Source of the DNA: an uncultured Fretibacterium sp.
Lineage (GTDB): Bacteria > Synergistota > Synergistia > Synergistales > Aminobacteriaceae
Reading direction: 5' to 3'
DNA length: 64,000 nt
NCBI GenBank assembly: GCA_946183145.1
Contig: CAMGZM010000007.1
Location: forward strand, 33,412 to 97,411
Within the stretch, counting starts at the first letter, position 1. The number at the start of each line of letters is the position of its first letter. Positions 6,956 to 62,176 of this stretch are shown here, piece by piece. Under the pieces are notes generated by a model. The model did not search any database. It was not told the origin of the DNA and worked only from the letters and a program-made list of their open reading frames with translations. The translations under genes and the position numbers were made by a program.

Positions 6956-7908
6956 GCTATCCCTGCTTTCAGTAAATCGTGAATGTGTATTATTCCCACA
7001 GGCTTTTGGCCTTCAACCGCAATCAACACGCTGATCTCGCTGCGCTCCATGATTCTTACGGCTTCCGTTGCTAATGCGTCAGGGCTGATAGTTTTCGGAT
7101 TGTGAGTCATTGCGTCAGTGATTCTTGTCGTGAATGCGTCATTTCCGGCCTTCTCCATCAATCTCCGCAAATCTCCGTCCGTGAATATCCCCGTCAAATT
7201 CCCGTCATCATCAAGAATGCAGGCCGCTCCGTAACCTTTTCCCGTAATCACAAAGAGGGCTTCTTTCACCGTAACTTTCTCAGACACAGCCGGAAGATTA
7301 TCCCCCGTTGCCATGACATCACGAACCCGCGTCAAAAGTCTGCGCCCCAAAGCCCCGCCCGGGTGGAGCTGCGCGAAATCCTCACGCCTTACCCCCCGCA
7401 GAAGCGTAACCATTGTCGCAAGCGCGTCGCCTAATACAAGCTCAAGAGTCGTGCTGCTCATTGGCGCGAGCTGCAAAGGATCTCCCTCGTTATCGACATG
7501 GGCATTAATCACGATGTCGGCAAATTCGGCCAGAGGTGAAGAGAGAGAGCCTGTTACAGCAATAAGCCCCGCCCCCGTTCGTTTGACATGCGGGAGAAGG
7601 GCTGTAATCTCTTGCGATGAGCCGGAATTTGAGATGAATATTGCGGTGTCCTCAGATCGAATCATGCCTAAATCGCCGTGCAATGCTTCAGCGGCATGAA
7701 GAAAGAATGACGGAGTTCCCAATGATGCGAGTGTTGCGGAAATTTTGCGCCCGACATGGCCGGATTTCCCTAATCCTACGACTACTACACGGCCTTTGCA
7801 GGTATATATTTTCCGCGCTGCCCTCACCATTTCGACACTGAGATTTTTCGCGCTGTTCAGTATTTCGTCCGCCTCCGTTACCATTAACTTTTTGGCGGCG
7901 TTAAGCAA
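6952..7908 (-). CDS. kdsD: arabinose-5-phosphate isomerase (KpsF/GutQ family; SIS + tandem CBS)
   Basis: 318 aa. SIS motif VVVVGLGKSGHVGRKISATLASLGTPSFFLH and a C-terminal CBS pair. 4-nt overlap with kdsB. Confidence 0.85.
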   Translation of the reverse strand: MLNAAKKLMVTEADEILNSAKNLSVEMVRAARKIYTCKGRVVVVGLGKSGHVGRKISATLASLGTPSFFLHAAEALHGDLGMIRSEDTAIFISNSGSSQEITALLPHVKRTGAGLIAVTGSLSSPLAEFADIVINAHVDNEGDPLQLAPMSSTTLELVLGDALATMVTLLRGVRREDFAQLHPGGALGRRLLTRVRDVMATGDNLPAVSEKVTVKEALFVITGKGYGAACILDDDGNLTGIFTDGDLRRLMEKAGNDAFTTRITDAMTHNPKTISPDALATEAVRIMERSEISVLIAVEGQKPVGIIHIHDLLKAGIA

Positions 7909-28867: not shown

Positions 28868-28940
<73 letters not shown>

Positions 28941-28958
28941 GTAAATGGAACAGATAGA

Positions 28959-29032
28959 CGCGCCCGGCAGGATTTGAACCCGCTGCCTGAAGATCCGAAG
29001 TCTTCCGCTCTATCCAGATGAGCTACGAACGC
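28959..29032 (-). tRNA. tRNA-Arg (UCG)
   Basis: Starts GCGTTCGTAGCTCATCTGGATAGAGC. Anticodon loop CUUCGGA, T-loop TTCAAAT. No encoded CCA. Confidence 0.9.
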
Positions 29033-29038
29033 ATAAAG

Positions 29039-29113
29039 GGTGAGTGAAGGGACTTGAACCCTCAACCGCCGGAACCACAATCCGAAGCTCTAACCAATTG
29101 CGCTACACTCACC
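29039..29113 (-). tRNA. tRNA-His (GUG)
   Basis: An extra 5' G(-1) pairs with C73. Anticodon loop UUGUGGU, T-loop TTCAAGT. No encoded CCA. Confidence 0.9.
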
Positions 29114-29123
29114 ATGTTATTTA

Positions 29124-29200
29124 TGGCGCGCCCTGCAGGATTCGAACCCGCGGCCTACGGCTTAGAAGGCCGTTGCTCTATCCAGCTGAGCTAAGAGCGC
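29124..29200 (-). tRNA. tRNA-Arg (UCU)
   Basis: Acceptor GCGCTCT/AGGGCGC, anticodon loop CUUCUAA. 3' CCA is encoded (tgg at 29124-29126 on plus). Confidence 0.9.
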
Positions 29201-29215
29201 GTATTAACTTTTCAG

Positions 29216-29289
29216 AGCGGGAAACGGGATTCGAACCCGCGACCTACGGCTTGGAAGGCCATCGCTCTAGCCAACTGAGCTATTCCCGC
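29216..29289 (-). tRNA. tRNA-Gly (UCC)
   Basis: Starts GCGGGAATAGCTCAGTTGGCTAGAGC. Anticodon loop CUUCCAA, discriminator U. No encoded CCA. Confidence 0.9.
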
Positions 29290-29308
29290 ATACTTTTTTC
29301 ACTGGGTA

Positions 29309-29383
29309 TCGGGGCGAGAAGATTCGAACTTCCGACCCCCTGCTCCCAAAGCAGGTGCGCTAACCAGACTGCGCTACACCCCG
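29309..29383 (-). tRNA. tRNA-Pro (UGG)
   Basis: Starts CGGGGTGTAGCGCAGTCTGGTTAGCGC. Anticodon loop UUUGGGA. No encoded CCA. Confidence 0.9.
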
Positions 29384-32193: not shown

Positions 32194-32221
32194 CAAAATT
32201 GTCTCCTTTTTTTAGTATAAT

Positions 32222-32507
32222 CTCTTAGCCTTTAATGAGTTAAGGTTTGGAGATTGGACGGACAAAACGCTCTGTCTGTAAAATCTTAAGCGACTTAAGG
32301 CAAAACAGTTAGCCGTTCTGTAAAAACGATTGCACACATTGTGCTTTACAACGTAACCCGGTGAACTTTCACGTTCTACGGTTTAGAGGCTGAAGTAAGC
32401 CAGCCCCGGCGAATAAGGGTACTCTGAGGCGTAAACATTCGAGGCTCAGACGTTTAGACCATGTGCCAGACTTTTCCGAAAGCCACCGCCTTTAAGTGTG
32501 TGGATGT
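32222..32507 (+). other. anomalous ~290-nt hairpin-rich spacer between ftsW and murG; candidate structured RNA or mini-element distantly related to the 58.2/62.0-kb repeats
   Basis: TAGTATAAT box at 32213-32221 on the plus strand (antisense to dcw). Hairpin ACAG-TTAGCCGTT-CTGT at 32305-32321. Block CCACCGCCTTTAAG..GGATG at 32483-32506. GAGGCTCAGA at 32441-32450. Confidence 0.3.
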
Positions 32508-33581
32508 TTACTTCTCTTTGTTCTCCTGCTTTATTGACATGAGTAATCCTATCTTTGCCCACATGAACATCATCGAGCTTCCTCCCGCGCTCAAAAACGG
32601 CATCGGGATTCCTGACAGTGGCATTAACTTTGTTACGCCCGCAACGTTCACGAACATCGGAAATATCACCGACGCTGTGAGACCTAATGCAAGCGATTTC
32701 GTGAAAGGAGTCTTTGCGTTCTTGTATATGTAGTACACACGCCACGTCCATAACGCATAGAGTATCAGCAAAAACATTGTACCCATTAACCCAAACTCCT
32801 CACCTATCGCAGGGAAAATATAATCAGTCTCAGCTTCCGGCAAATATCTCTGTTCCTGAAGTCCCTTACCGATTCCGACTCCTGTTAATGAACCGTTTGC
32901 GAATGCTACGAGGCCCTGAATAATCTGGAAGCCCGTATCAGTAGGATCTGACCACGGATCCCAGAAGGCGTTGAAGCGTCTCATCCTGTAAGGCGCAATC
33001 ATAATCAGCACAACTACCGCCGCAATTCCCAGTATCACGCCCCATATAGGATATTTCCAGCCGCGCCGCTCTATGTGCATGACGAAACATATAGCTGTGA
33101 TGATTAACGTTCCGCCCAAATTCGGCTGAAGCATTAACGGTATACCCATCATCGCAATCACTATTAGAGTCGGACGGACGAATGAGTGAAAATTTCCGCG
33201 CTTCGTGAGGCTGTCTTCATCGGTGAGTCTGTCGGCCATGAAAATCGGTACCGCGAACAATGCAAGCTCAAGAGGCTGAAACCGAATCACTACGAGGCTT
33301 AACCATCGGCGTGCGCCCCCGACTTTGATTCCGATTCCGGGAATTGCCGTTATCACAAGAAGAAAGAATGCGAGTGTGAATAATTTTCCGCTGTGCTTCC
33401 TCACTGACGGACTCGTCCACGCAAAGCATATCATCATCAGAGTCAATCCCACGCCTATAAACTGGAACTGCCTTAACGGTGCTGCGTATGGATTCCCTCC
33501 GGCCATGCTGTTACGCAGTGAGAGGGACGAAATCATCACGAGGCCGCACCCGCTTATTATCAACGGTATCAATATCTCCAT
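32508..33581 (-). CDS. ftsW: FtsW/RodA/SpoVE-family (SEDS) peptidoglycan polymerase
   Basis: 357 aa, ~10 TM helices, conserved ...LPEAETDYIFPAIGEEFG... motif. dcw context between murD and murG. Confidence 0.85.
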   Translation of the reverse strand: MEILIPLIISGCGLVMISSLSLRNSMAGGNPYAAPLRQFQFIGVGLTLMMICFAWTSPSVRKHSGKLFTLAFFLLVITAIPGIGIKVGGARRWLSLVVIRFQPLELALFAVPIFMADRLTDEDSLTKRGNFHSFVRPTLIVIAMMGIPLMLQPNLGGTLIITAICFVMHIERRGWKYPIWGVILGIAAVVVLIMIAPYRMRRFNAFWDPWSDPTDTGFQIIQGLVAFANGSLTGVGIGKGLQEQRYLPEAETDYIFPAIGEEFGLMGTMFLLILYALWTWRVYYIYKNAKTPFTKSLALGLTASVIFPMFVNVAGVTKLMPLSGIPMPFLSAGGSSMMFMWAKIGLLMSIKQENKEK

Positions 33582-37495: not shown

Positions 37496-37542
37496 GAATA
37501 TTCCTCCCGGTGTGAAAAGATTTTCAGGGTAAGTATAGATTT

Positions 37543-37627
37543 GACTCCCTGCGGCAGAATTATCTGCTTCAGGTTCAAAGGGTCGGTGAAAAAAATCACC
37601 CTCTCAGCAAATATAAGCTCCCCTGAA
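37543..37627 (-). promoter_or_regulatory. TPP (THI-box) riboswitch
   Basis: Minus-strand sense reads ...CAGGGGAGC..GCTGAGAGGGTG...CACCGACCCTTTGAACCTGAAGCAGATAATTCTGCCGCAGGGAGTC. It contains the CUGAGA and ACCUGA..GAUAAU..GC..AGGGA signatures. Confidence 0.85.
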
Positions 37628-37707
37628 TGTTAATCATATATTATACGCTGTAAGTAATTTATGTTAAAATTCGGTCAGTAAAAATTCTTTCAAAGGGGTA
37701 ATGTGTA

Positions 37708-56202: not shown

Positions 56203-57312
56203 ATGGAACAAAGAGAGAAGCAAATAATCCGGGTCAGCATAATCGGAATCATTGCGAATGTATTTCTTGCGGGATTCAAATTCGCTGTGGGATTCTTTGC
56301 GCGTTCAGTCGCGATTATGGCGGACGCTCTGAACAATGCGAGCGATGTTTTGTCGTCAGTCGTAACGATAATCGGCACGAAATTAGCCGGGAGACCTGCG
56401 GACAAGGCTCATCCTTTCGGACATGGCCGTGTAGAGTACATTACGGCGGCTGTGATTTCTGGGATCATACTTTACGCGGGAATAACTGCGCTCATTGAGT
56501 CGGTGAATAGAATCATCTGGCCTGTTGCGCCTGAACATAACGCTGTGAGTCTCGGTGTTGTTGCGGCTGGCGTAATCGTGAAAATAGTGTTAGGGCGTTA
56601 CGTGAAATCGCAGGGTGAAAAATTATCGTCCGACTCACTGAAAAATTCGGGGGCTGACGCTCTCATGGACTCGGCTGTATCATCAACGACTCTAATCGGC
56701 GCGCTTGCGTTTATGTTCGCGGGGGTAAATCTTGAGGCGTGGCTCGGAGTGTTCATCTCATTCATGATAATCAAGGCTGCTGTTGATATGTTCATGGAGA
56801 CGACAAGCAAAATTTTGGGCGAACGTGAAGACAGCGAATTAACGAAAGCGATAAAGGAGACAATCTGCGAAACTGAAGGCGTTTACGGAGCGTATGATTT
56901 AGTCCTGACGAACTACGGCCCCGACAAGCTGATAGGCTCAGTGCATATTGAGGTTCCTGACACATGGACGGCGGGAAAAATTGACGAGACAAGCCGGAAA
57001 ATCATGCACAGAGTCGCAATGAAGAATCATATCGCGCTTGCGGCAATCGGGGTATACTCGCACAACACTACGGACAAGAGAGCCTCAGAGATTCGCGAGA
57101 ATGTTACGAGGGCGGCCATGTCGCAGAAATATGTATTGCAGGTTCACGGGTTCTATTTCAGCGCGGACGAGAAGACAATACGGTTTGACGTTGTTGCGGA
57201 TTTCTCTGCGCCTGATGCTGAGACTGTACACAAAGAAGTTACTCATGCTGTGAAGAAGCTGTACCCGGAATATAAATTAATGGTGCAGGTTGATTCGGAC
57301 TTTTCGGACTAA
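56203..57312 (+). CDS. cation diffusion facilitator (CDF) family transporter
   Basis: 369 aa. 6 TM helices with ...DALNNASDV... and ...HPFGHGRVEY... motifs, plus a C-terminal cytoplasmic domain. Confidence 0.85.
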   Translation: MEQREKQIIRVSIIGIIANVFLAGFKFAVGFFARSVAIMADALNNASDVLSSVVTIIGTKLAGRPADKAHPFGHGRVEYITAAVISGIILYAGITALIESVNRIIWPVAPEHNAVSLGVVAAGVIVKIVLGRYVKSQGEKLSSDSLKNSGADALMDSAVSSTTLIGALAFMFAGVNLEAWLGVFISFMIIKAAVDMFMETTSKILGEREDSELTKAIKETICETEGVYGAYDLVLTNYGPDKLIGSVHIEVPDTWTAGKIDETSRKIMHRVAMKNHIALAAIGVYSHNTTDKRASEIRENVTRAAMSQKYVLQVHGFYFSADEKTIRFDVVADFSAPDAETVHKEVTHAVKKLYPEYKLMVQVDSDFSD

Positions 57313-57328
57313 AGAAGGAGGAATAATT

Positions 57329-58154
57329 TTGCCGTATATAGCGATGAAGGATAACACGAAGATTTACTACGAGGAACGCGGAGAAGGTCAGACAGTATTA
57401 TTTTTGCACGGACTCAGCTCATCACATTTTGAGTTAAGGCCGTTCATGAAGAATTTTGAGGGCGAATATCATTGTGTCTGCTACGATCACCGGGGACATG
57501 CCGCTTCTGAGAGGACTCACAAGCACATGAACATTCACACGCTCGGGTCAGGACTTGCGCGAAATCATAGAGTATCTTAACCTGAAAGATATTCACATAA
57601 TCGGTCATTCGATGGGAGCAGCAACAATTTTCAGCTACGTGAATCAATTCGGCTGTGAGAGGCTCAAGACAATAACGGCGGTTGACATGACTCCGTATAT
57701 GCGTAATACAGTCTGGGAGGGCGGAATAGGACTCGGAAAATGGACGGATGAAGACTTCCTGACGGATATAGATATGATGTTTGACGACATTGGCGCGGCG
57801 AACTGGCGAATAATGACTCACCTAATGACCCCGGCAATGTCAGCGACCCCGAAAGAATATACGCCTGCAATGATGTCAATGTGCCGTGAAAATCTTGACC
57901 CGTTCACCGTCGCGGCCATGTGGTACTCACTTTTCAGGACAGACCAGCGTGAGGCAGTCAGCAAAATCACAGTGCCTTTTCTGTATCTCATGCCTGAAAC
58001 GCCGCTATACTCAATGACAACGGTTAATTTTTACCGCGATAACGTGAAGAATAAATTTGTGCTTGAGAATAATTTTCCCGGAACGACTCATTTATTGCTC
58101 ATGGAAAAACCGAATGAGTCCGCCGAATGCGTGAAAAAATTTCTGAGGTCATAA
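57329..58154 (+). pseudogene. alpha/beta hydrolase split by a +1 frameshift near 57545-57548
   Basis: ORF 57290-57580 carries the N-terminal part (VLFLHGLSSS...). ORF 57555-58154 carries the rest (IIGHSMGA nucleophile elbow). The frames join as ...NIHTLG|QDLREIIEYL at a GGG run. Confidence 0.7.
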
Positions 58155-58227
58155 CATGCACTACACAGAGCCATGACTGAAATGTGGCGTAATACTCCTA
58201 GCTTCAACAATATAGTATAATAATTTT

Positions 58228-58412
58228 GCGGTTAGCCGTTCCGCGTTACCAAAAATGTATAAAGTAATGTTGTGTCCTATTTAGGGTTATACAGTCCCTT
58301 ACGGGGCGTTGCTAGGGGCGGACTGACCACGCCTTTAAGAATAAGGATGCCTGTGTAAACGGGTGGAGACTTAAAATTATACTTCTTAAGAATCCCGCTT
58401 GGGAGGTTCAGA
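58228..58412 (+). repeat. copy A of a ~185-nt structured repeat (candidate ncRNA or mini-element)
   Basis: About 90% identical to the reverse complement of 61949-62134. TAGTATAAT box at 58213-58221, 7 nt upstream. Hairpin GCGG-TTAGCCGTT-CCGC at the 5' end. Confidence 0.8.
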
Positions 58413-58453
58413 CAGGAGTCCTTACTGGCCTATGCTACTATTGTGAAAAATAA

Positions 58454-58759
58454 TGCAAGAGTGTAAGCACAAACAGGGGGACTTATTTTTTTTGTAGTAC
58501 AGAGCTGAAAGAGGAAGCAGAACGCGGAGAATTTGACCCTTGCACCGAGTTTGAATTGATGACTGAGCTGAAAACGTTTATTGAGAACTTAACGATTGAC
58601 TTTGAGAGATTCATAACACATCATACTGTATCAGCTAATCTCAACTGCCGTAACTTTCAGGCAAGCAAGCACGAAATATTAGAGGAGCTTCAATACGCGA
58701 TTGACAACACAGACCTTGACGAATTAGCCCGACTCAGAGCCGCAAAGAAGAGGCTGTAA
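58454..58759 (+). pseudogene. C-terminal remnant of a radical-SAM-type protein
   Basis: The frame is open from 58454 but has no credible start or RBS. ...GEFDPCTEFELMTELKTFIENLTIDFERFITHHTVSANL... resembles the C-terminal tail of B12-binding/radical SAM proteins. No N-terminal part is present. Confidence 0.4.
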
Positions 58760-58772
58760 CAACAAAAATTTT

Positions 58773-58804
58773 TCCCCTTCATGAGAACGTGAGGGGGATT
58801 TTTT
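58773..58804 (+). terminator. Rho-independent terminator
   Basis: 8-bp stem TCCCCTTC / GAGGGGGA, followed by T6. Confidence 0.7.
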
Positions 58805-58857
58805 CTGCGTATGCTAATATATCTCACATCACTTTTTCCACAAAGGAATGATTTTTC

Positions 58858-59127
58858 ATGAAAGCCGTAATGACCGTAACAGCTCAGGACAGAGTCGGAA
58901 TTATCGCGGGCGTTTGCTCGTTGCTTGCCGGAATGGGCGTGAATATTCTCGACCTGAGTCAGACAGTAATGCAGGGAATCTTCACGATGACTCTTCTTGT
59001 CGACACATCAACATCATCACATACATTTGACGAAATTCGGACGGCGTTAATGACTCGCGGCGAAAAAGAATCGCTCAACATTCACATACAGCGGGCGGAT
59101 ATTTTCGAGGCTATGCACAGGGTGTAA
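58858..59127 (+). CDS. ACT-domain protein (UPF0237 family)
   Basis: 89 aa. [36 protein letters not shown]... Conserved partner of the DUF711 gene. Confidence 0.8.
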
Positions 59128-59129
59128 AC

Positions 59130-60488
59130 ATGCTTAACATATCTGACATAATGCAGACGGTCAACATGATCGATCATCAGCATTTAGACATACGGACAAT
59201 AACGCTCGGAATATCTTTGTACGATTGCGCAAGCTCTGACATTCACAAATGCGCCCGTAAGATTCGCGAAAAGATTTGCAGGAAGGCCGAAAATCTCGTG
59301 AAAGTCGGCTGTGAAATCGAGAATGAGTACGGTATTCCCATCGTCAACAAAAGAATCTCCGTTACGCCAATCGCCGAAATTGCCGCGTCATGTGAAAGTG
59401 ATGATTATTCGGTGATCGGCCATGCCCTGAATGATGCCGCGTCAGAATGCGGAGTAAATTTCATCGGGGGATTCTCTGCGTTAGTGCATAAAGGCTTCAC
59501 TGAGTCCGACAAAAGATTAATCGCCTCAATTCCCCGCACGCTCGCAGAAACTGAGCTTGTATGCTCATCCGTCAACGTAGCCACAACGAAAGCCGGAATC
59601 AACATGGACGCAGTTGCGATGATGGGACGAATCATAAAGGAGACTGCGAATCTTACGGCGGACAAAAACGGACTCGGCTGTGCAAAGCTCGTAATATTTG
59701 CGAACGCTGTAGAAGATAATCCCTTCATGGCCGGAGCGTTTCACGGAGCTGGCGAGCCTGAATGCGTGATTAATGTCGGAGTGTCAGGGCCGGGAGTTGT
59801 GTGGCGCGCATTGCAGGACGTAAAGGGCGAAAGTTTTGACGTTGTAGCAGAGACTGTAAAGCGTACAGCATTCCGCATAACTCGTATGGGTCAGGTTGTG
59901 GCTAATGCAGCGTCTGAAAGATTAGGGATTCCGTTCGGGATTGTCGATTTGTCATTGGCACCGACTCCGGCAAAGGGCGACTCAGTTGCGAGGATTCTTG
60001 AGGAGATGGGACTCAAAGTCTGCGGGACTCACGGAACAACGGCGGCACTTGCTTTGCTGAATGATGCTGTGAAGAAAGGCGGCGTGATGGCATCCGGCCA
60101 TGTCGGGGGATTATCGGGCGCATTTATCCCGGTGAGCGAGGACGAAGGAATGATTCACGCGGTGAAGTCCGGGGCATTGAGCATAGAGAAATTAGAGGCT
60201 ATGACGTGCGTATGCTCTGTAGGTCTCGACATGATAGCAGTTCCGGGGGACACGAGCGCACAGACTATAGCGGCGATAATTGCGGACGAGTCAGCGATCG
60301 GAGTCATCAACAACAAGACTACAGCCGTAAGAGTCATACCTGCGCCGGGGAAAAGTGTCGGCGATTCTGTGGAGTTCGGCGGGTTATTGGGGAATGCTCC
60401 CGTAATGCGCGTGAATAATGCGGGAAGTGATGAATTTGTAGCAAGAGGAGGAAGAATCCCGGCTCCGATTCACAGCCTGAGGAATTAA
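59130..60488 (+). CDS. UPF0210/DUF711 ('PFL-like') family protein
   Basis: 452 aa. ...[11 protein letters not shown]...GGFSALV...VDLSLAPTP... pattern of the DUF711 family. Confidence 0.85.
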
Positions 60489-60525
60489 TTACTGATTATG
60501 CGCTAAGTAATTTGGATAATGCATA

Positions 60526-60552
60526 TTGACCCCCCCCCCTATAAGTTAGAAT
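60526..60552 (+). promoter_or_regulatory. putative promoter with a poly-C tract in the spacer
   Basis: TTGACC (60526-60531), a 15-nt spacer dominated by the C run, then TAGAAT (60547-60552). Confidence 0.4.
60530..60539 (+). repeat. homopolymeric C10 tract
   Basis: Ten consecutive C at 60530-60539, the longest G/C homopolymer I saw in the window. Confidence 0.95.
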
Positions 60553-60625
60553 ACATCAATCAAACACATTCGACTCTATGAATATCCCGGCATTAGTATA
60601 TTCATTGAAAGGGGGACAAAAGATT

Positions 60626-61045
60626 ATGCCGCGTCAGGCACATCACGGAGATATTATCAAAGTCAATCATGCTTTATACGCTCATTACGGCGTTTATGTT
60701 GACGGCGGGAGAGTCATTCATTACACCGACACAAGCGGAGGAGACTTCAAAGGCGTTGTGCAGGAGACATCATTGTTGTCATCATTCCTTAACGGTGAAA
60801 GCAGCTATTCAGTGTGCGAATTTGACCCCAGGGATTACCCGCATATATATTTGCCTGAAGAGACTGTGAGACGCGCAAGAAGCAAAATCAACGAGGGAGG
60901 CTACAACTTCTTCACGCATAACTGTGAACATTTTGCGGTTTGGTGCAAGACAGGCAAATACGAATCATCGCAGGTATCAGGCTACAAACCTATAAAAATT
61001 GCGGACGGTGTATTTTCGGCAATCGAGGACTTGTTCTCATTCTAA
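60626..61045 (+). CDS. LRAT/NlpC-P60 superfamily (NC-domain) protein
   Basis: H...C catalytic pattern: HYGVYVDGGRVIHY and NCEHFAVWCKTG. ATG 60626 lies after an AAGGGGGA RBS. Confidence 0.7.
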   Translation: MPRQAHHGDIIKVNHALYAHYGVYVDGGRVIHYTDTSGGDFKGVVQETSLLSSFLNGESSYSVCEFDPRDYPHIYLPEETVRRARSKINEGGYNFFTHNCEHFAVWCKTGKYESSQVSGYKPIKIADGVFSAIEDLFSF

Positions 61046-61069
61046 TAATTTTACAGGGGGGCTATCATT

Positions 61070-61441
61070 ATGACGGATTCACAAAATTCAAAGTGTCATG
61101 GAATAATTCACACGGCATCACTTGCAGCTGCGGCGGCGGGCGGAGGAATGGCACAGCTTCCCGGCTCTGACGCAATCCCGATAACGGCGGCGCAGATCAC
61201 TATGATTATTTCTCTCGGCGCGGTGTTTGATATTCCTGTGAGCAGGTCAGCGGCTCAAGCGATTCTCAAAGGGCTTGCGGGTGCTGCGGGGGGAAGATTT
61301 GTTTCACAACTTCTTGTAGGATGGATTCTCGGACTGGGCAATGTCATAAACGCTTCAACAGCTGCGGCAATAACAGAGAAGCTCGGCTGGAAAGCTGCTG
61401 AGAAATTCGACAGGGAATCACGTCAGAGAATAACAGCATAA
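61070..61441 (+). CDS. small Gly/Ala-rich hypothetical protein (possibly membrane-associated)
   Basis: 123 aa. AAAAAGGG and GLAGAAGG segments. Starts 25 nt after the LRAT-like gene. Family not recognised. Confidence 0.45.
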   Translation: MTDSQNSKCHGIIHTASLAAAAAGGGMAQLPGSDAIPITAAQITMIISLGAVFDIPVSRSAAQAILKGLAGAAGGRFVSQLLVGWILGLGNVINASTAAAITEKLGWKAAEKFDRESRQRITA

Positions 61442-61497
61442 TAACATCACCGAAAATTCACGGGGCTGTCTGAAATATGGCGGCCTCGTTTTGTGTT

Positions 61498-61911
61498 TCA
61501 TATCCGTGAAATAATGTCGCTGAGTTTTACGGCATTCAAATTTTCCTCGAATGACTCTTGAATCTCATCAAGATACAATCCCAGCGCATTACGAATATTT
61601 TTCCCGACCGGGCATTTCGGATTAGGATTCGGATGGAAGCGGAACAATTTTCCCTTCACGCTTTCGACAGCAACATAGACATCATAGAGTGTAATATTTT
61701 CGGGCAGCCTTGAGAGTCTCATACCGCTTACACCCCGCGAGACATCAACAAGTCCGGCAGCTTTGAGCCGTGATATTATCTGCCTTATGATTACGGGGTT
61801 AGTGTTTACGCTTGACGCTACGAACTCGCTTGTTACGTTTTGTGAGTCCTGAAAGTAATCTATGCACGTGAGAATGTGAACAGCAACGGCGAATCGTCCT
61901 GAGATCTGCAA
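61498..61911 (-). CDS. Rrf2-family transcriptional regulator
   Basis: 137 aa. MQISGRFAVAVHILTCI... wHTH. TTG start 7 nt after GAGGGG. Confidence 0.85.
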   Translation of the reverse strand: MQISGRFAVAVHILTCIDYFQDSQNVTSEFVASSVNTNPVIIRQIISRLKAAGLVDVSRGVSGMRLSRLPENITLYDVYVAVESVKGKLFRFHPNPNPKCPVGKNIRNALGLYLDEIQESFEENLNAVKLSDIISRI

Positions 61912-61948
61912 AATTTATCCCCTCAATAAAAAAAGACTTCCGGCCATT

Positions 61949-62134
61949 CTGAGCCTCCCCAAGCGGGGTTTGTAAGAAGTTTGATTTTAAGTCTCCACCC
62001 GTTTACACAGGCATCCTTATTCTTAAAGGCGTGGCCAGTCCGCCCCTAGCAACGCCCCGTAAGGGACTGTATAGCCCTTGAAAGGACACAACATTACTTT
62101 ATACATTTTTGGTAACGCGGAATGACTAACCGCG
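61949..62134 (-). repeat. copy B of the ~185-nt structured repeat (inverted relative to copy A)
   Basis: Its reverse complement aligns end to end with 58228-58412. On the minus strand it is followed by a T7 run (61928-61934) and then the Rrf2 start. Confidence 0.8.
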
Positions 62135-62176
62135 AAAATATAACCGAAAGTCTTTGTAATTCGCTGTTTTCTGTGA

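Follow-up and report, generated by a model that had tools for sequence, protein, structure and literature searches.

Two structured repeats lie in inverted orientation on a contig of an uncultured Fretibacterium sp. and bracket a 3.5-kb block with the genes for the ACT, DUF711, LRAT and Rrf2 proteins. The question raised by this locus is what these repeats, copy A upstream and copy B downstream of the block, actually are. From the 64-kb stretch of DNA that was analysed (the window) it had originally been predicted that they are a conserved RNA (a small RNA or a cis leader), the ends of a non-autonomous element or the substrates for an inversion of the block. It is very probable that each repeat was inserted independently and is a non-autonomous, gene-less element of the IS200/IS605 family, of the type known as palindrome-associated transposable element (PATE). 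The element would, with the same high confidence, descend from a tnpB-only insertion sequence minus nearly all of its tnpB open reading frame (ORF), and its body in all likelihood consists of the scaffold of a TnpB guide RNA (omega RNA, also reRNA) followed by the transposon right end (RE). The repeats belong to an already known kind of selfish element; they are neither a novel regulatory RNA nor a switch for inversion, and the 3.5-kb block between A and B is ordinary chromosome. The reading as a non-autonomous element was right in essence, but the two repeats are not the ends of one cargo-bearing element; each of them is a whole unit.

The repeats and their homology to tnpB 3' ends

The presence of inverted repeats of ~185 nt with ~90% identity is borne out by a repeat search of the window, in which the arms 58220-58403 and 61958-62141 are 184 nt long, 92% complementary and 3554 nt apart. 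By blastn, copy A matches copy B with 91.8% identity over 194 nt (E 1.5e-76), and the number of close copies, which had been left to be counted, is two within the 64 kb; nhmmer gives the same pair. The gene context of ACT, DUF711, LRAT and Rrf2 is also as described before. In a global alignment, 176 of the 193 columns are identical. The 17 differing columns (13 substitutions and 4 gap columns) are placed at both ends of the repeat, and the central 90 nt are nearly identical. The differences are found in the loop of the 5' hairpin (58236 and 58238), in the loop of the CCT/AGG hairpin (58279-58282) together with its closing pair (G:U vs G:C at 58287), at one base of the GGCG...CGCC loop (58326) and in a cluster near the 3' end (58378-58407). 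None of the predicted pairs is broken by them: two are G:U/G:C changes, and the last stem is lengthened by one indel and one substitution.

The identity of the repeat is given by its homologues. A sensitive blastn search of plasmids returned one weak match (79% over 62 nt) in pCY360 of Butyrivibrio proteoclasticus, which extends across the stop codon of a gene annotated as TnpB, in the same strand orientation. When the 3' end of this tnpB was aligned with both copies, the homology was found to extend over ~190 nt, and its hairpins are preserved by compensatory changes (for example TCCT-ATTT-AGGG in the window vs GGAT-CTTAGC-ATCC in Butyrivibrio). The scaffold is homologous to the last ~125 nt of tnpB and the stretch up to the right end. 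This is the region in which the guide RNA of TnpB is known to be encoded, namely the tnpB 3' end plus the right end (PMC10055086).

A link to tnpB is also seen at other loci. A conserved 20-mer, CACGCCTNTAAGAATAAGGA, is found on 18 viral and more than 117 genome contigs. Among the 137 matches listed, 36 lie directly 3' of a complete 416-aa TnpB (65-91% identity, tblastn), and many further ones are cut by contig ends and accompanied by a C-terminal part of TnpB; the hosts of the listed matches are chiefly Lachnospiraceae, Erysipelotrichaceae and other Firmicutes. The 416-aa protein contains the Pfam domains OrfB_IS605 and Cas12f1-like_TNB. Full-length tnpB elements with the same GGGAGGTTCAG end are represented by L002, L031 and L102, and gene-less derivatives with both left end (LE) and RE occur in Firmicutes too (for example L050, L036 and L073), where they start after TTTAT.

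The 5' hairpin of the repeat together with AAAAATGTA was also considered as the 5' untranslated region and start codon of a tnpB. This was rejected, as the segment aligns at identical spacing with the part of tnpB that encodes RuvC-III. The same proposal is countered by a divergent third copy in the window, which retains the hairpin by means of compensatory changes. 6S RNA, T-box, retron non-coding RNA and IscB/HEARO RNA were also considered and dropped, since the homologues are tnpB 3' ends that carry a guide on their 3' side.

With Rfam 15 (gathering score, and E<=10) nothing was obtained at either copy or on a tnpB-linked homologue. The earlier statement that no RNA family matches thus holds for Rfam 15 but not for the class, which is known as the TnpB omega RNA. 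A search of a phage collection with the repeat yielded zero matches.

The folding of single copies is not significant: the minimum free energy z-scores are -1.4 and -1.9 on the proposed strand, and +0.2 on the other strand. The structural evidence therefore comes from the homologues. For 47 non-identical scaffolds, RNAalifold predicts 40 pairs, 21 of which show compensatory changes. A six-helix structure was written by hand and counted on 22 tnpB-linked sequences. In this model 95% of the cells are paired, compared to 33-44% with slid partners, and 36 cells are changed on both sides, which is reached by 0 of 500 shuffles. Covariation is seen in helices P1 and P3; P2 and both long-range helices are invariant and for that reason uninformative in this respect.

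A covariance model (R1) was made from the 22 tnpB-linked Firmicutes sequences and zero Synergistota sequences. It matches copy B with 68.2 bits (E 1e-11, 61966-62101, full model) and copy A with 60.1 bits (E 4e-10, model positions 1-120 of 120), and five other tnpB-less Synergistota copies score 59-103 bits. The relatives L148 and L151, which do not carry the elements, give no match. Of the conserved structured RNA in the original prediction, the structured scaffold with its covariation in P1 and P3 is retained, and the role as small RNA or cis leader of the flanking genes is not, the orthologous loci being empty.

Empty sites, boundaries and decay

The extent of both units could be read from relatives with uninterrupted loci, which were reached through DUF711 and MBL-fold homologues; exact-protein look-ups of the Rrf2 and DUF711 of the window returned nothing. 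The closest homologues of the host proteins are Synergistaceae proteins from metagenome-assembled genomes (MAGs). The ancestral gene order is CDF transporter, alpha/beta hydrolase, radical SAM (293 aa), ACT, DUF711, further genes, Rrf2 (convergent) and MBL-fold, and the window shows the same order and orientation. Copy A is present in L138 (98% DUF711 identity) and absent from L139, L144, L145, L147 and L148-L154, while copy B is present in L156 (99% MBL identity) and absent from L148-L155. In L139, L144, L145 and L147 the hydrolase is directly followed by ACT, and in L140-L143 this place is taken by CDF, in both cases with no element. Orthologous loci without both copies are found in relatives at 90-96% protein identity.

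The features of the two units, as predicted from these and the preceding alignments, are given below, with coordinates in the window.

58178-58411 (+): element A, a gene-less IS200/IS605-type mini-element of 234 nt, delimited by the intact radical-SAM alleles of L151 and L148; it comprises an LE remnant, a -10-like box, the omega RNA scaffold and the RE
58178-58212 (+): LE remnant of A, TGAAATGTGGCGTAATACTCCTAGCTTCAAC..., aligned with L022, L048 and L096
58213-58221 (+): -10-like box of A, TAGTATAAT, conserved in Synergistota copies
58228-58244 (+): 5' hairpin GCGG-TTAGCCGTT-CCGC, the first RNA stem, present in 7 of 7 Synergistota copies
58260-58395 (+): core omega RNA scaffold of A with P1, P2, P3 and the long-range helices, from the R1 match and the alignments
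58394-58411 (+): RE of A, a shortened subterminal hairpin CCC-GCTT-GGG and then AGGTTCAG up to the boundary
58412-58431 (+): guide A, the 3' flank ACAGGAGTCCTTACTGGCCT, equal to codons 8-14 of the disrupted radical-SAM gene
58156-58759 (+): radical-SAM pseudogene, aligned with the intact 293-aa genes of L151 and L148
61949-62139 (-): element B, a mini-element of 191 nt with omega RNA scaffold and RE and with no left end, delimited by empty sites
62140-62143 (-): TTAT, the target or transposon-adjacent motif (TAM) directly 5' of B, from the empty-site alignment
61929-61948 (-): guide B, the 3' flank AATGGCCGGAAGTCTTTTTT, native Rrf2 leader that is unchanged in the empty sites

The insertion of B is the simpler case. 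The empty sites (L148, L151, L154 and L155) read GGTTAT|AAT(G/T)GCCGGAAGTC, also given as GGTTAT|AAT(G/T)GCCGGAAGTCTTTTTTT, and the window reads GGTTAT[ATTTTCGCGG...GGGGAGGCTCAG]AATGGCCGGAAGTC. B is an exact 191-nt insertion 3' of TTAT in the spacer between MBL and Rrf2, with zero target duplication, and it starts 5 nt before the first RNA hairpin. Its guide is matched in L151 and L154 as TTAT|AATGGCCGGAAGTC. The same TAM is seen at the left ends of L048 (GTTAT|TGAAAT) and L022 (ATTAT|CGAAAAT). In the uninterrupted spacer, the TTAT is part of a TATAAT box that precedes the Rrf2 start by ~40 nt. With the insertion a TATATT box is formed anew, and this is the one that the original prediction had noted at this copy. 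The T7 run after copy B is indeed present, but together with the GAGGGG ribosome-binding site it is host sequence, found in the empty sites too, and does not belong to the element.

Element A holds 43 extra nt of left-end remnant beyond the shared repeat. Compared to L151 and L148, its right junction is GGTTCAG|ACAGGAGTCC and its left junction is GAGCCATGAC|TGAAATG. The intact alleles read GAGCC(TTTGT or GCTAT)|ACAGGAGTCC at codons 6-8 of the radical-SAM gene, and the window reads GAGCCATGAC|TGAAATG...GGTTCAG|ACAGGAGTCCTTACTGGCC, which places the insertion in codon 7/8. Guide A is identical to the uninterrupted allele of L148 (GCTAT|ACAGGAGTCCTTACTGGCCTAC), where its match can be written as CTAT|ACAGGAGTCCTTACTGGCC. 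Both guides are equal to an uninterrupted allele beside a (T/C)TAT motif. This corresponds to TnpB homing, in which a guide equal to the vacant site is known to let TnpB cut vacant sites (PMC10055086). The shared repeat as first delimited was correct as such, although the true units are larger or offset (A 58178-58411, B 61949-62139), as determined from the empty sites.

The left end of A can be aligned to those of L022, L048 and L093. The 3' arm of its LE hairpin (~19 nt) is deleted, which appears as a gap in the alignment to L022, L048 and L096. The -10-like box is kept in L022 and L137 (TAGTATAAT), L048 (TAGTAAAAT) and L096 (TATTATAAT). The box is presumed to be the promoter of the omega RNA and was probably that of tnpB in the ancestral element. 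A good -35 could not be identified for it in A, and a promoter consensus scan did not list it. The spacing of the 5' hairpin from the core equals that of the RuvC-III coding region in Butyrivibrio tnpB. The RE of A is homologous to the RE of L022 (CCCCTGTCTTTAGGCATGGGGAGGCTCAG) and to the tnpB-linked ...GGGAGGTTCAG of L002, L031 and L102, and its boundary is set by the empty site.

The radical-SAM remnant noted beside copy A is real, as shown by alignment to the intact genes of relatives. The pseudogene consists of the start plus 7 codons (58156-58177), element A, ~60 nt of 5' coding sequence, a ~620-nt deletion and a 3' part, which includes a 67-aa ORF (58556-58759) that by itself has no Pfam match. 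The insertion of element A inactivated this gene; later ~620 nt were lost and the gene decayed. The T8 run after A (58484-58491) is former radical-SAM coding sequence.

The two copies also appear to exchange sequence. An 18-nt insertion, TCCCTTACGGGGCGTTGC at 58295-58312 in A and at 62048-62065 in B, and the P3 variant CCTGTGTAAACGGG are common to the two copies of the window. Copy A of L138 (1977-2210) has the 18-nt insertion and a different P3, and copy B of L156 (1160-1262) equals the B of the window over 92 nt except for the missing 18-nt insertion. This pattern suggests that gene conversion probably took place between the two inverted copies in the lineage of the window. The conversion would have homogenised the centre of the repeat, which explains why the differences lie at its ends. 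It follows that the pattern of differences is weak evidence for RNA-level selection: the differences do fall in loops or preserve pairing, as originally noted, but their value as a sign of such selection is reduced by the probable gene conversion.

Neither copy seems to be mobilisable any longer. Half of the LE hairpin is gone in A, the LE is gone in B, and the RE hairpins of both are shortened to CCC(C)-GCTT-GGG(G). Similar subterminal hairpins at LE and RE are not seen in the copies of the window, whereas L022, L048 and L093 have them. The two copies are best described as likely derivatives of PATE-type elements and not as intact members, and they look like fossils.

Mechanism, objections and alternatives

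By the published IS605 mechanism, a TnpA (Y1 transposase) acting in trans would have moved the elements as single-stranded DNA. Transcription of the RNA may start from the conserved TATAAT box in A, and in B it may depend on the rebuilt host -10 (TTATAT/TATATT). A TnpB from elsewhere would then use these RNAs to cut empty sites that consist of TTAT plus guide, after which recombination would restore the element.

Several observations weigh against this interpretation. A tblastn search of the 64-kb window with a cognate TnpB gave nothing (best E 0.98), and no search for tnpA was made. tnpB is absent from every retrieved Synergistota copy, and any partner protein is hypothetical. Within the window both copies are orphans by tblastn, with no tnpB overlapping the scaffold or directly upstream. 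The ORFs around the copies encode neither transposases nor recombinases, in agreement with the original prediction for the neighbouring ORFs; small ORFs elsewhere in the window were not scanned. In addition, the left flank of A is ATGAC instead of TTAT, with TTTGT or GCTAT in the relatives, so that two TAM substitutions or a small deletion must be assumed. B does not possess the LE hairpin required by TnpA, yet its left junction is exact. Candidate routes to such a structure are a TnpA that cut aberrantly at a TTAT-like site inside the element and a microhomology deletion between TTATA (target) and TATAAT (element). Finally, the conserved -10 box and the intact scaffold could reflect use by the host.

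This last point leads to the alternative that survives best, although it is improbable. The copies would be domesticated guide RNAs that the host maintains and that serve in trans a TnpB or a nuclease-dead repressor of the TldR type encoded elsewhere, so that specific loci are regulated or protected. In a broader form, for which the chance is equally slim, Synergistaceae would keep tnpB-less, self-promoted omega RNA genes as trans guides for a TnpB/TldR-like protein encoded elsewhere. Copy B, located in the Rrf2 leader, would then couple Rrf2 expression to the guide system, and if the trans-guide version were true, this expression would be tied to RNA-guided processing or binding. In 7 of 7 Synergistota copies tnpB is absent, while the TATAAT box and the 5' hairpin are kept and the scaffold is intact; both copies of the window have lost their mobility determinants and retained the RNA; and no predicted pair is broken by the differences between A and B. 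Moreover, L048 is located directly upstream of fliW, a flagellar gene, and TldR is known to target genes of this group. However, both insertions are recent and lineage-specific, and relatives at 93-96% identity lack them; as with any selfish copy, the guides are simply the DNA next to the insertion. A second target in the window is absent for both guides: guide A has no second match there and guide B no other close match, the best others having 3 mismatches. The near-identical centre is accounted for by gene conversion, and no TnpB or TldR is in view in the window.

A stand-alone small RNA or riboswitch-like leader, which would control the ACT-DUF711 operon and Rrf2 with no transposon function, is very unlikely and has been largely refuted by the empty sites. 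Both copies do point into downstream genes, a T-run follows each of them, and the fold is structured in the homologues. The ACT-DUF711 and Rrf2 loci of many relatives, however, do not contain the element, and because of this absence from orthologous loci the repeat is not a riboswitch or leader. The T7 after B is host sequence that also occurs in the empty sites, and the T8 after A belongs to the decayed coding sequence of the radical-SAM gene. Elsewhere the sequence family goes together with tnpB genes, and no Rfam riboswitch match was obtained.

Programmed inversion of the 3.5-kb ACT-DUF711-LRAT-Rrf2 block, with the inverted copies as substrates, is just as unlikely and finds no support: 184 nt of inverted homology are available and the copies do recombine (the 18-nt indel is found in A and B yet is missing in B of L156), but the block has the same orientation as in copy-less relatives and a single one in the assembly, no recombinase gene is nearby, and an inversion, if one occurred, would be of the accidental RecA type and would not constitute a switch.

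The interpretation as gene-less guide-RNA elements can be placed among known systems. With the omega RNAs of TnpB (IS200/IS605, IS1341-type tnpB-only) the copies share the scaffold homology, the conserved helices with covarying P1 and P3, the guide directly 3' of the RE and an empty allele with TTAT directly 5' of the guide match. They differ in that no tnpB overlaps or adjoins them, and in their own short upstream region with a TATAAT box. In addition, a further hairpin of 18 nt is present, the terminal hairpin is shortened, and the subtype is not in Rfam 15. For Geobacillus stearothermophilus, PATE-like elements have been described that encode omega RNAs on which TnpB acts in trans (PMC10055086), and for C. 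difficile an IStron-derived PATE (bioRxiv 10.1101/2023.11.20.567912). Like these, the units of the window are gene-less, a few hundred nt in size, derived from IS605-type ends, inserted next to a short motif with no duplication, and in need of TnpA and TnpB in trans. In contrast, they belong to another phylum (Synergistota) and another sequence family, and with their damaged or missing left ends they are probably no longer mobilisable PATEs.

TldR proteins are domesticated, nuclease-dead TnpB repressors whose guides, encoded beside tldR, correspond to promoters elsewhere in the host (PMC10705468). The resemblance to their guide RNAs lies in an omega RNA-type scaffold outside an active transposon and in one related copy by a flagellar gene, whereas the copies of the window have no adjacent protein gene and their guides are their own insertion flank. 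Miniature inverted-repeat transposable elements (MITEs) and REP-like repeats are likewise short, multi-copy, non-coding, structured and intergenic. The element described here has neither terminal inverted repeats nor a target duplication and is therefore not a classical MITE; its LE differs from its RE, and it is inserted in an oriented manner 3' of TTAT. Elements of the IS200/IS605 type lack both of these hallmarks, so the proposal to refute the RNA reading by finding the terminal repeats and target duplications of a MITE is not applicable here.

An unannotated structured repeat is hereby assigned to a defined class, the orphan TnpB guide-RNA element, with no new mechanism. The assignment accounts for the dead radical-SAM gene, the longer Rrf2 leader with its rebuilt -10 and the assembly breaks in related metagenomes. 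It adds an omega RNA subtype that is missing from Rfam, a TAM (TTAT) that is directly observed with matched empty and occupied alleles, and guide-RNA-only derivatives in Synergistota with gene conversion between copies.

Related copies and other observations

Other tnpB-less copies are L096 (Synergistaceae RGIG3196), L022 and L093 (both RGIG3256), L048 from a Fretibacterium MAG (7040-7440, with intact LE and RE, directly upstream of fliW and pointing into it) and L137 on a metagenome contig, upstream of tadA. The copies of the window and the Synergistota copies have in common the TATAAT box, the hairpin GCGG-TTAGYCGTT-CCGC and the end GAGG(C/T)TCAG. In L022, L048 and L093 the LE hairpin CCCTAGCTTCAACTATGGGG resembles the RE hairpin CCCCTGTCTTTAGGCATGGGG; such similar hairpins are typical for IS200/IS605 ends. 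The same three copies carry a conserved insertion of ~120-140 nt (GCAACACTATCAAAAG...GAGAAAAGGTG) between the 5' hairpin and the core (L022 3574-3690, L048 7150-7265, L093 2595-2735), which is absent from the copies of the window and from the tnpB-linked RNAs of Firmicutes. When metagenomes were scanned with the 5' module, one locus was obtained. With flagellar genes as known targets of TldR guide RNAs, L048 near fliW is a candidate for domestication.

The third, divergent copy in the window is an omega-RNA-like mini-element at 32214-32511 (+). It is matched by R1 at 32349-32484 with 27.6 bits (E 0.0017 over all sources, 1e-5 locally). The TAGTATAAT box is located at 32214-32222, and the hairpin ACAG-TTAGCCGTT-CTGT keeps the loop of A/B with compensatory changes in the stem. 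An RE-like hairpin GCCACCGCCTTTAAGTGTGTGGATGTTTAC is also present, and the end of the element is the stop codon of a convergent ORF (32508-33581).

The closest homologues of the MBL-fold protein (P0121-P0125, 95-99% identity) are located on contigs of 1.0-1.3 kb, and the contig of L156, the one that was read, stops within copy B. From this it seems that metagenome assemblies of these strains break at the repeat.

Upstream of A, the alpha/beta-hydrolase (57290-58154, +) is made up of two overlapping ORFs in different frames, one of 96 aa with an HG motif and one of 199 aa with GHSMG, where relatives have a single ORF of 269-277 aa. The split is a frameshift, either of a pseudogene or from a sequencing error. 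A run of ten C (60530-60539) is located in the spacer between DUF711 and LRAT, after TTGA and before TATAAG, and is possibly a slippage-prone tract near a promoter-like sequence. Elsewhere in the window, and unrelated to the repeats, Rfam detects a TPP riboswitch at 37531-37634 (-) with 63.7 bits and a cluster of six tRNAs at 28868-29383 (-).

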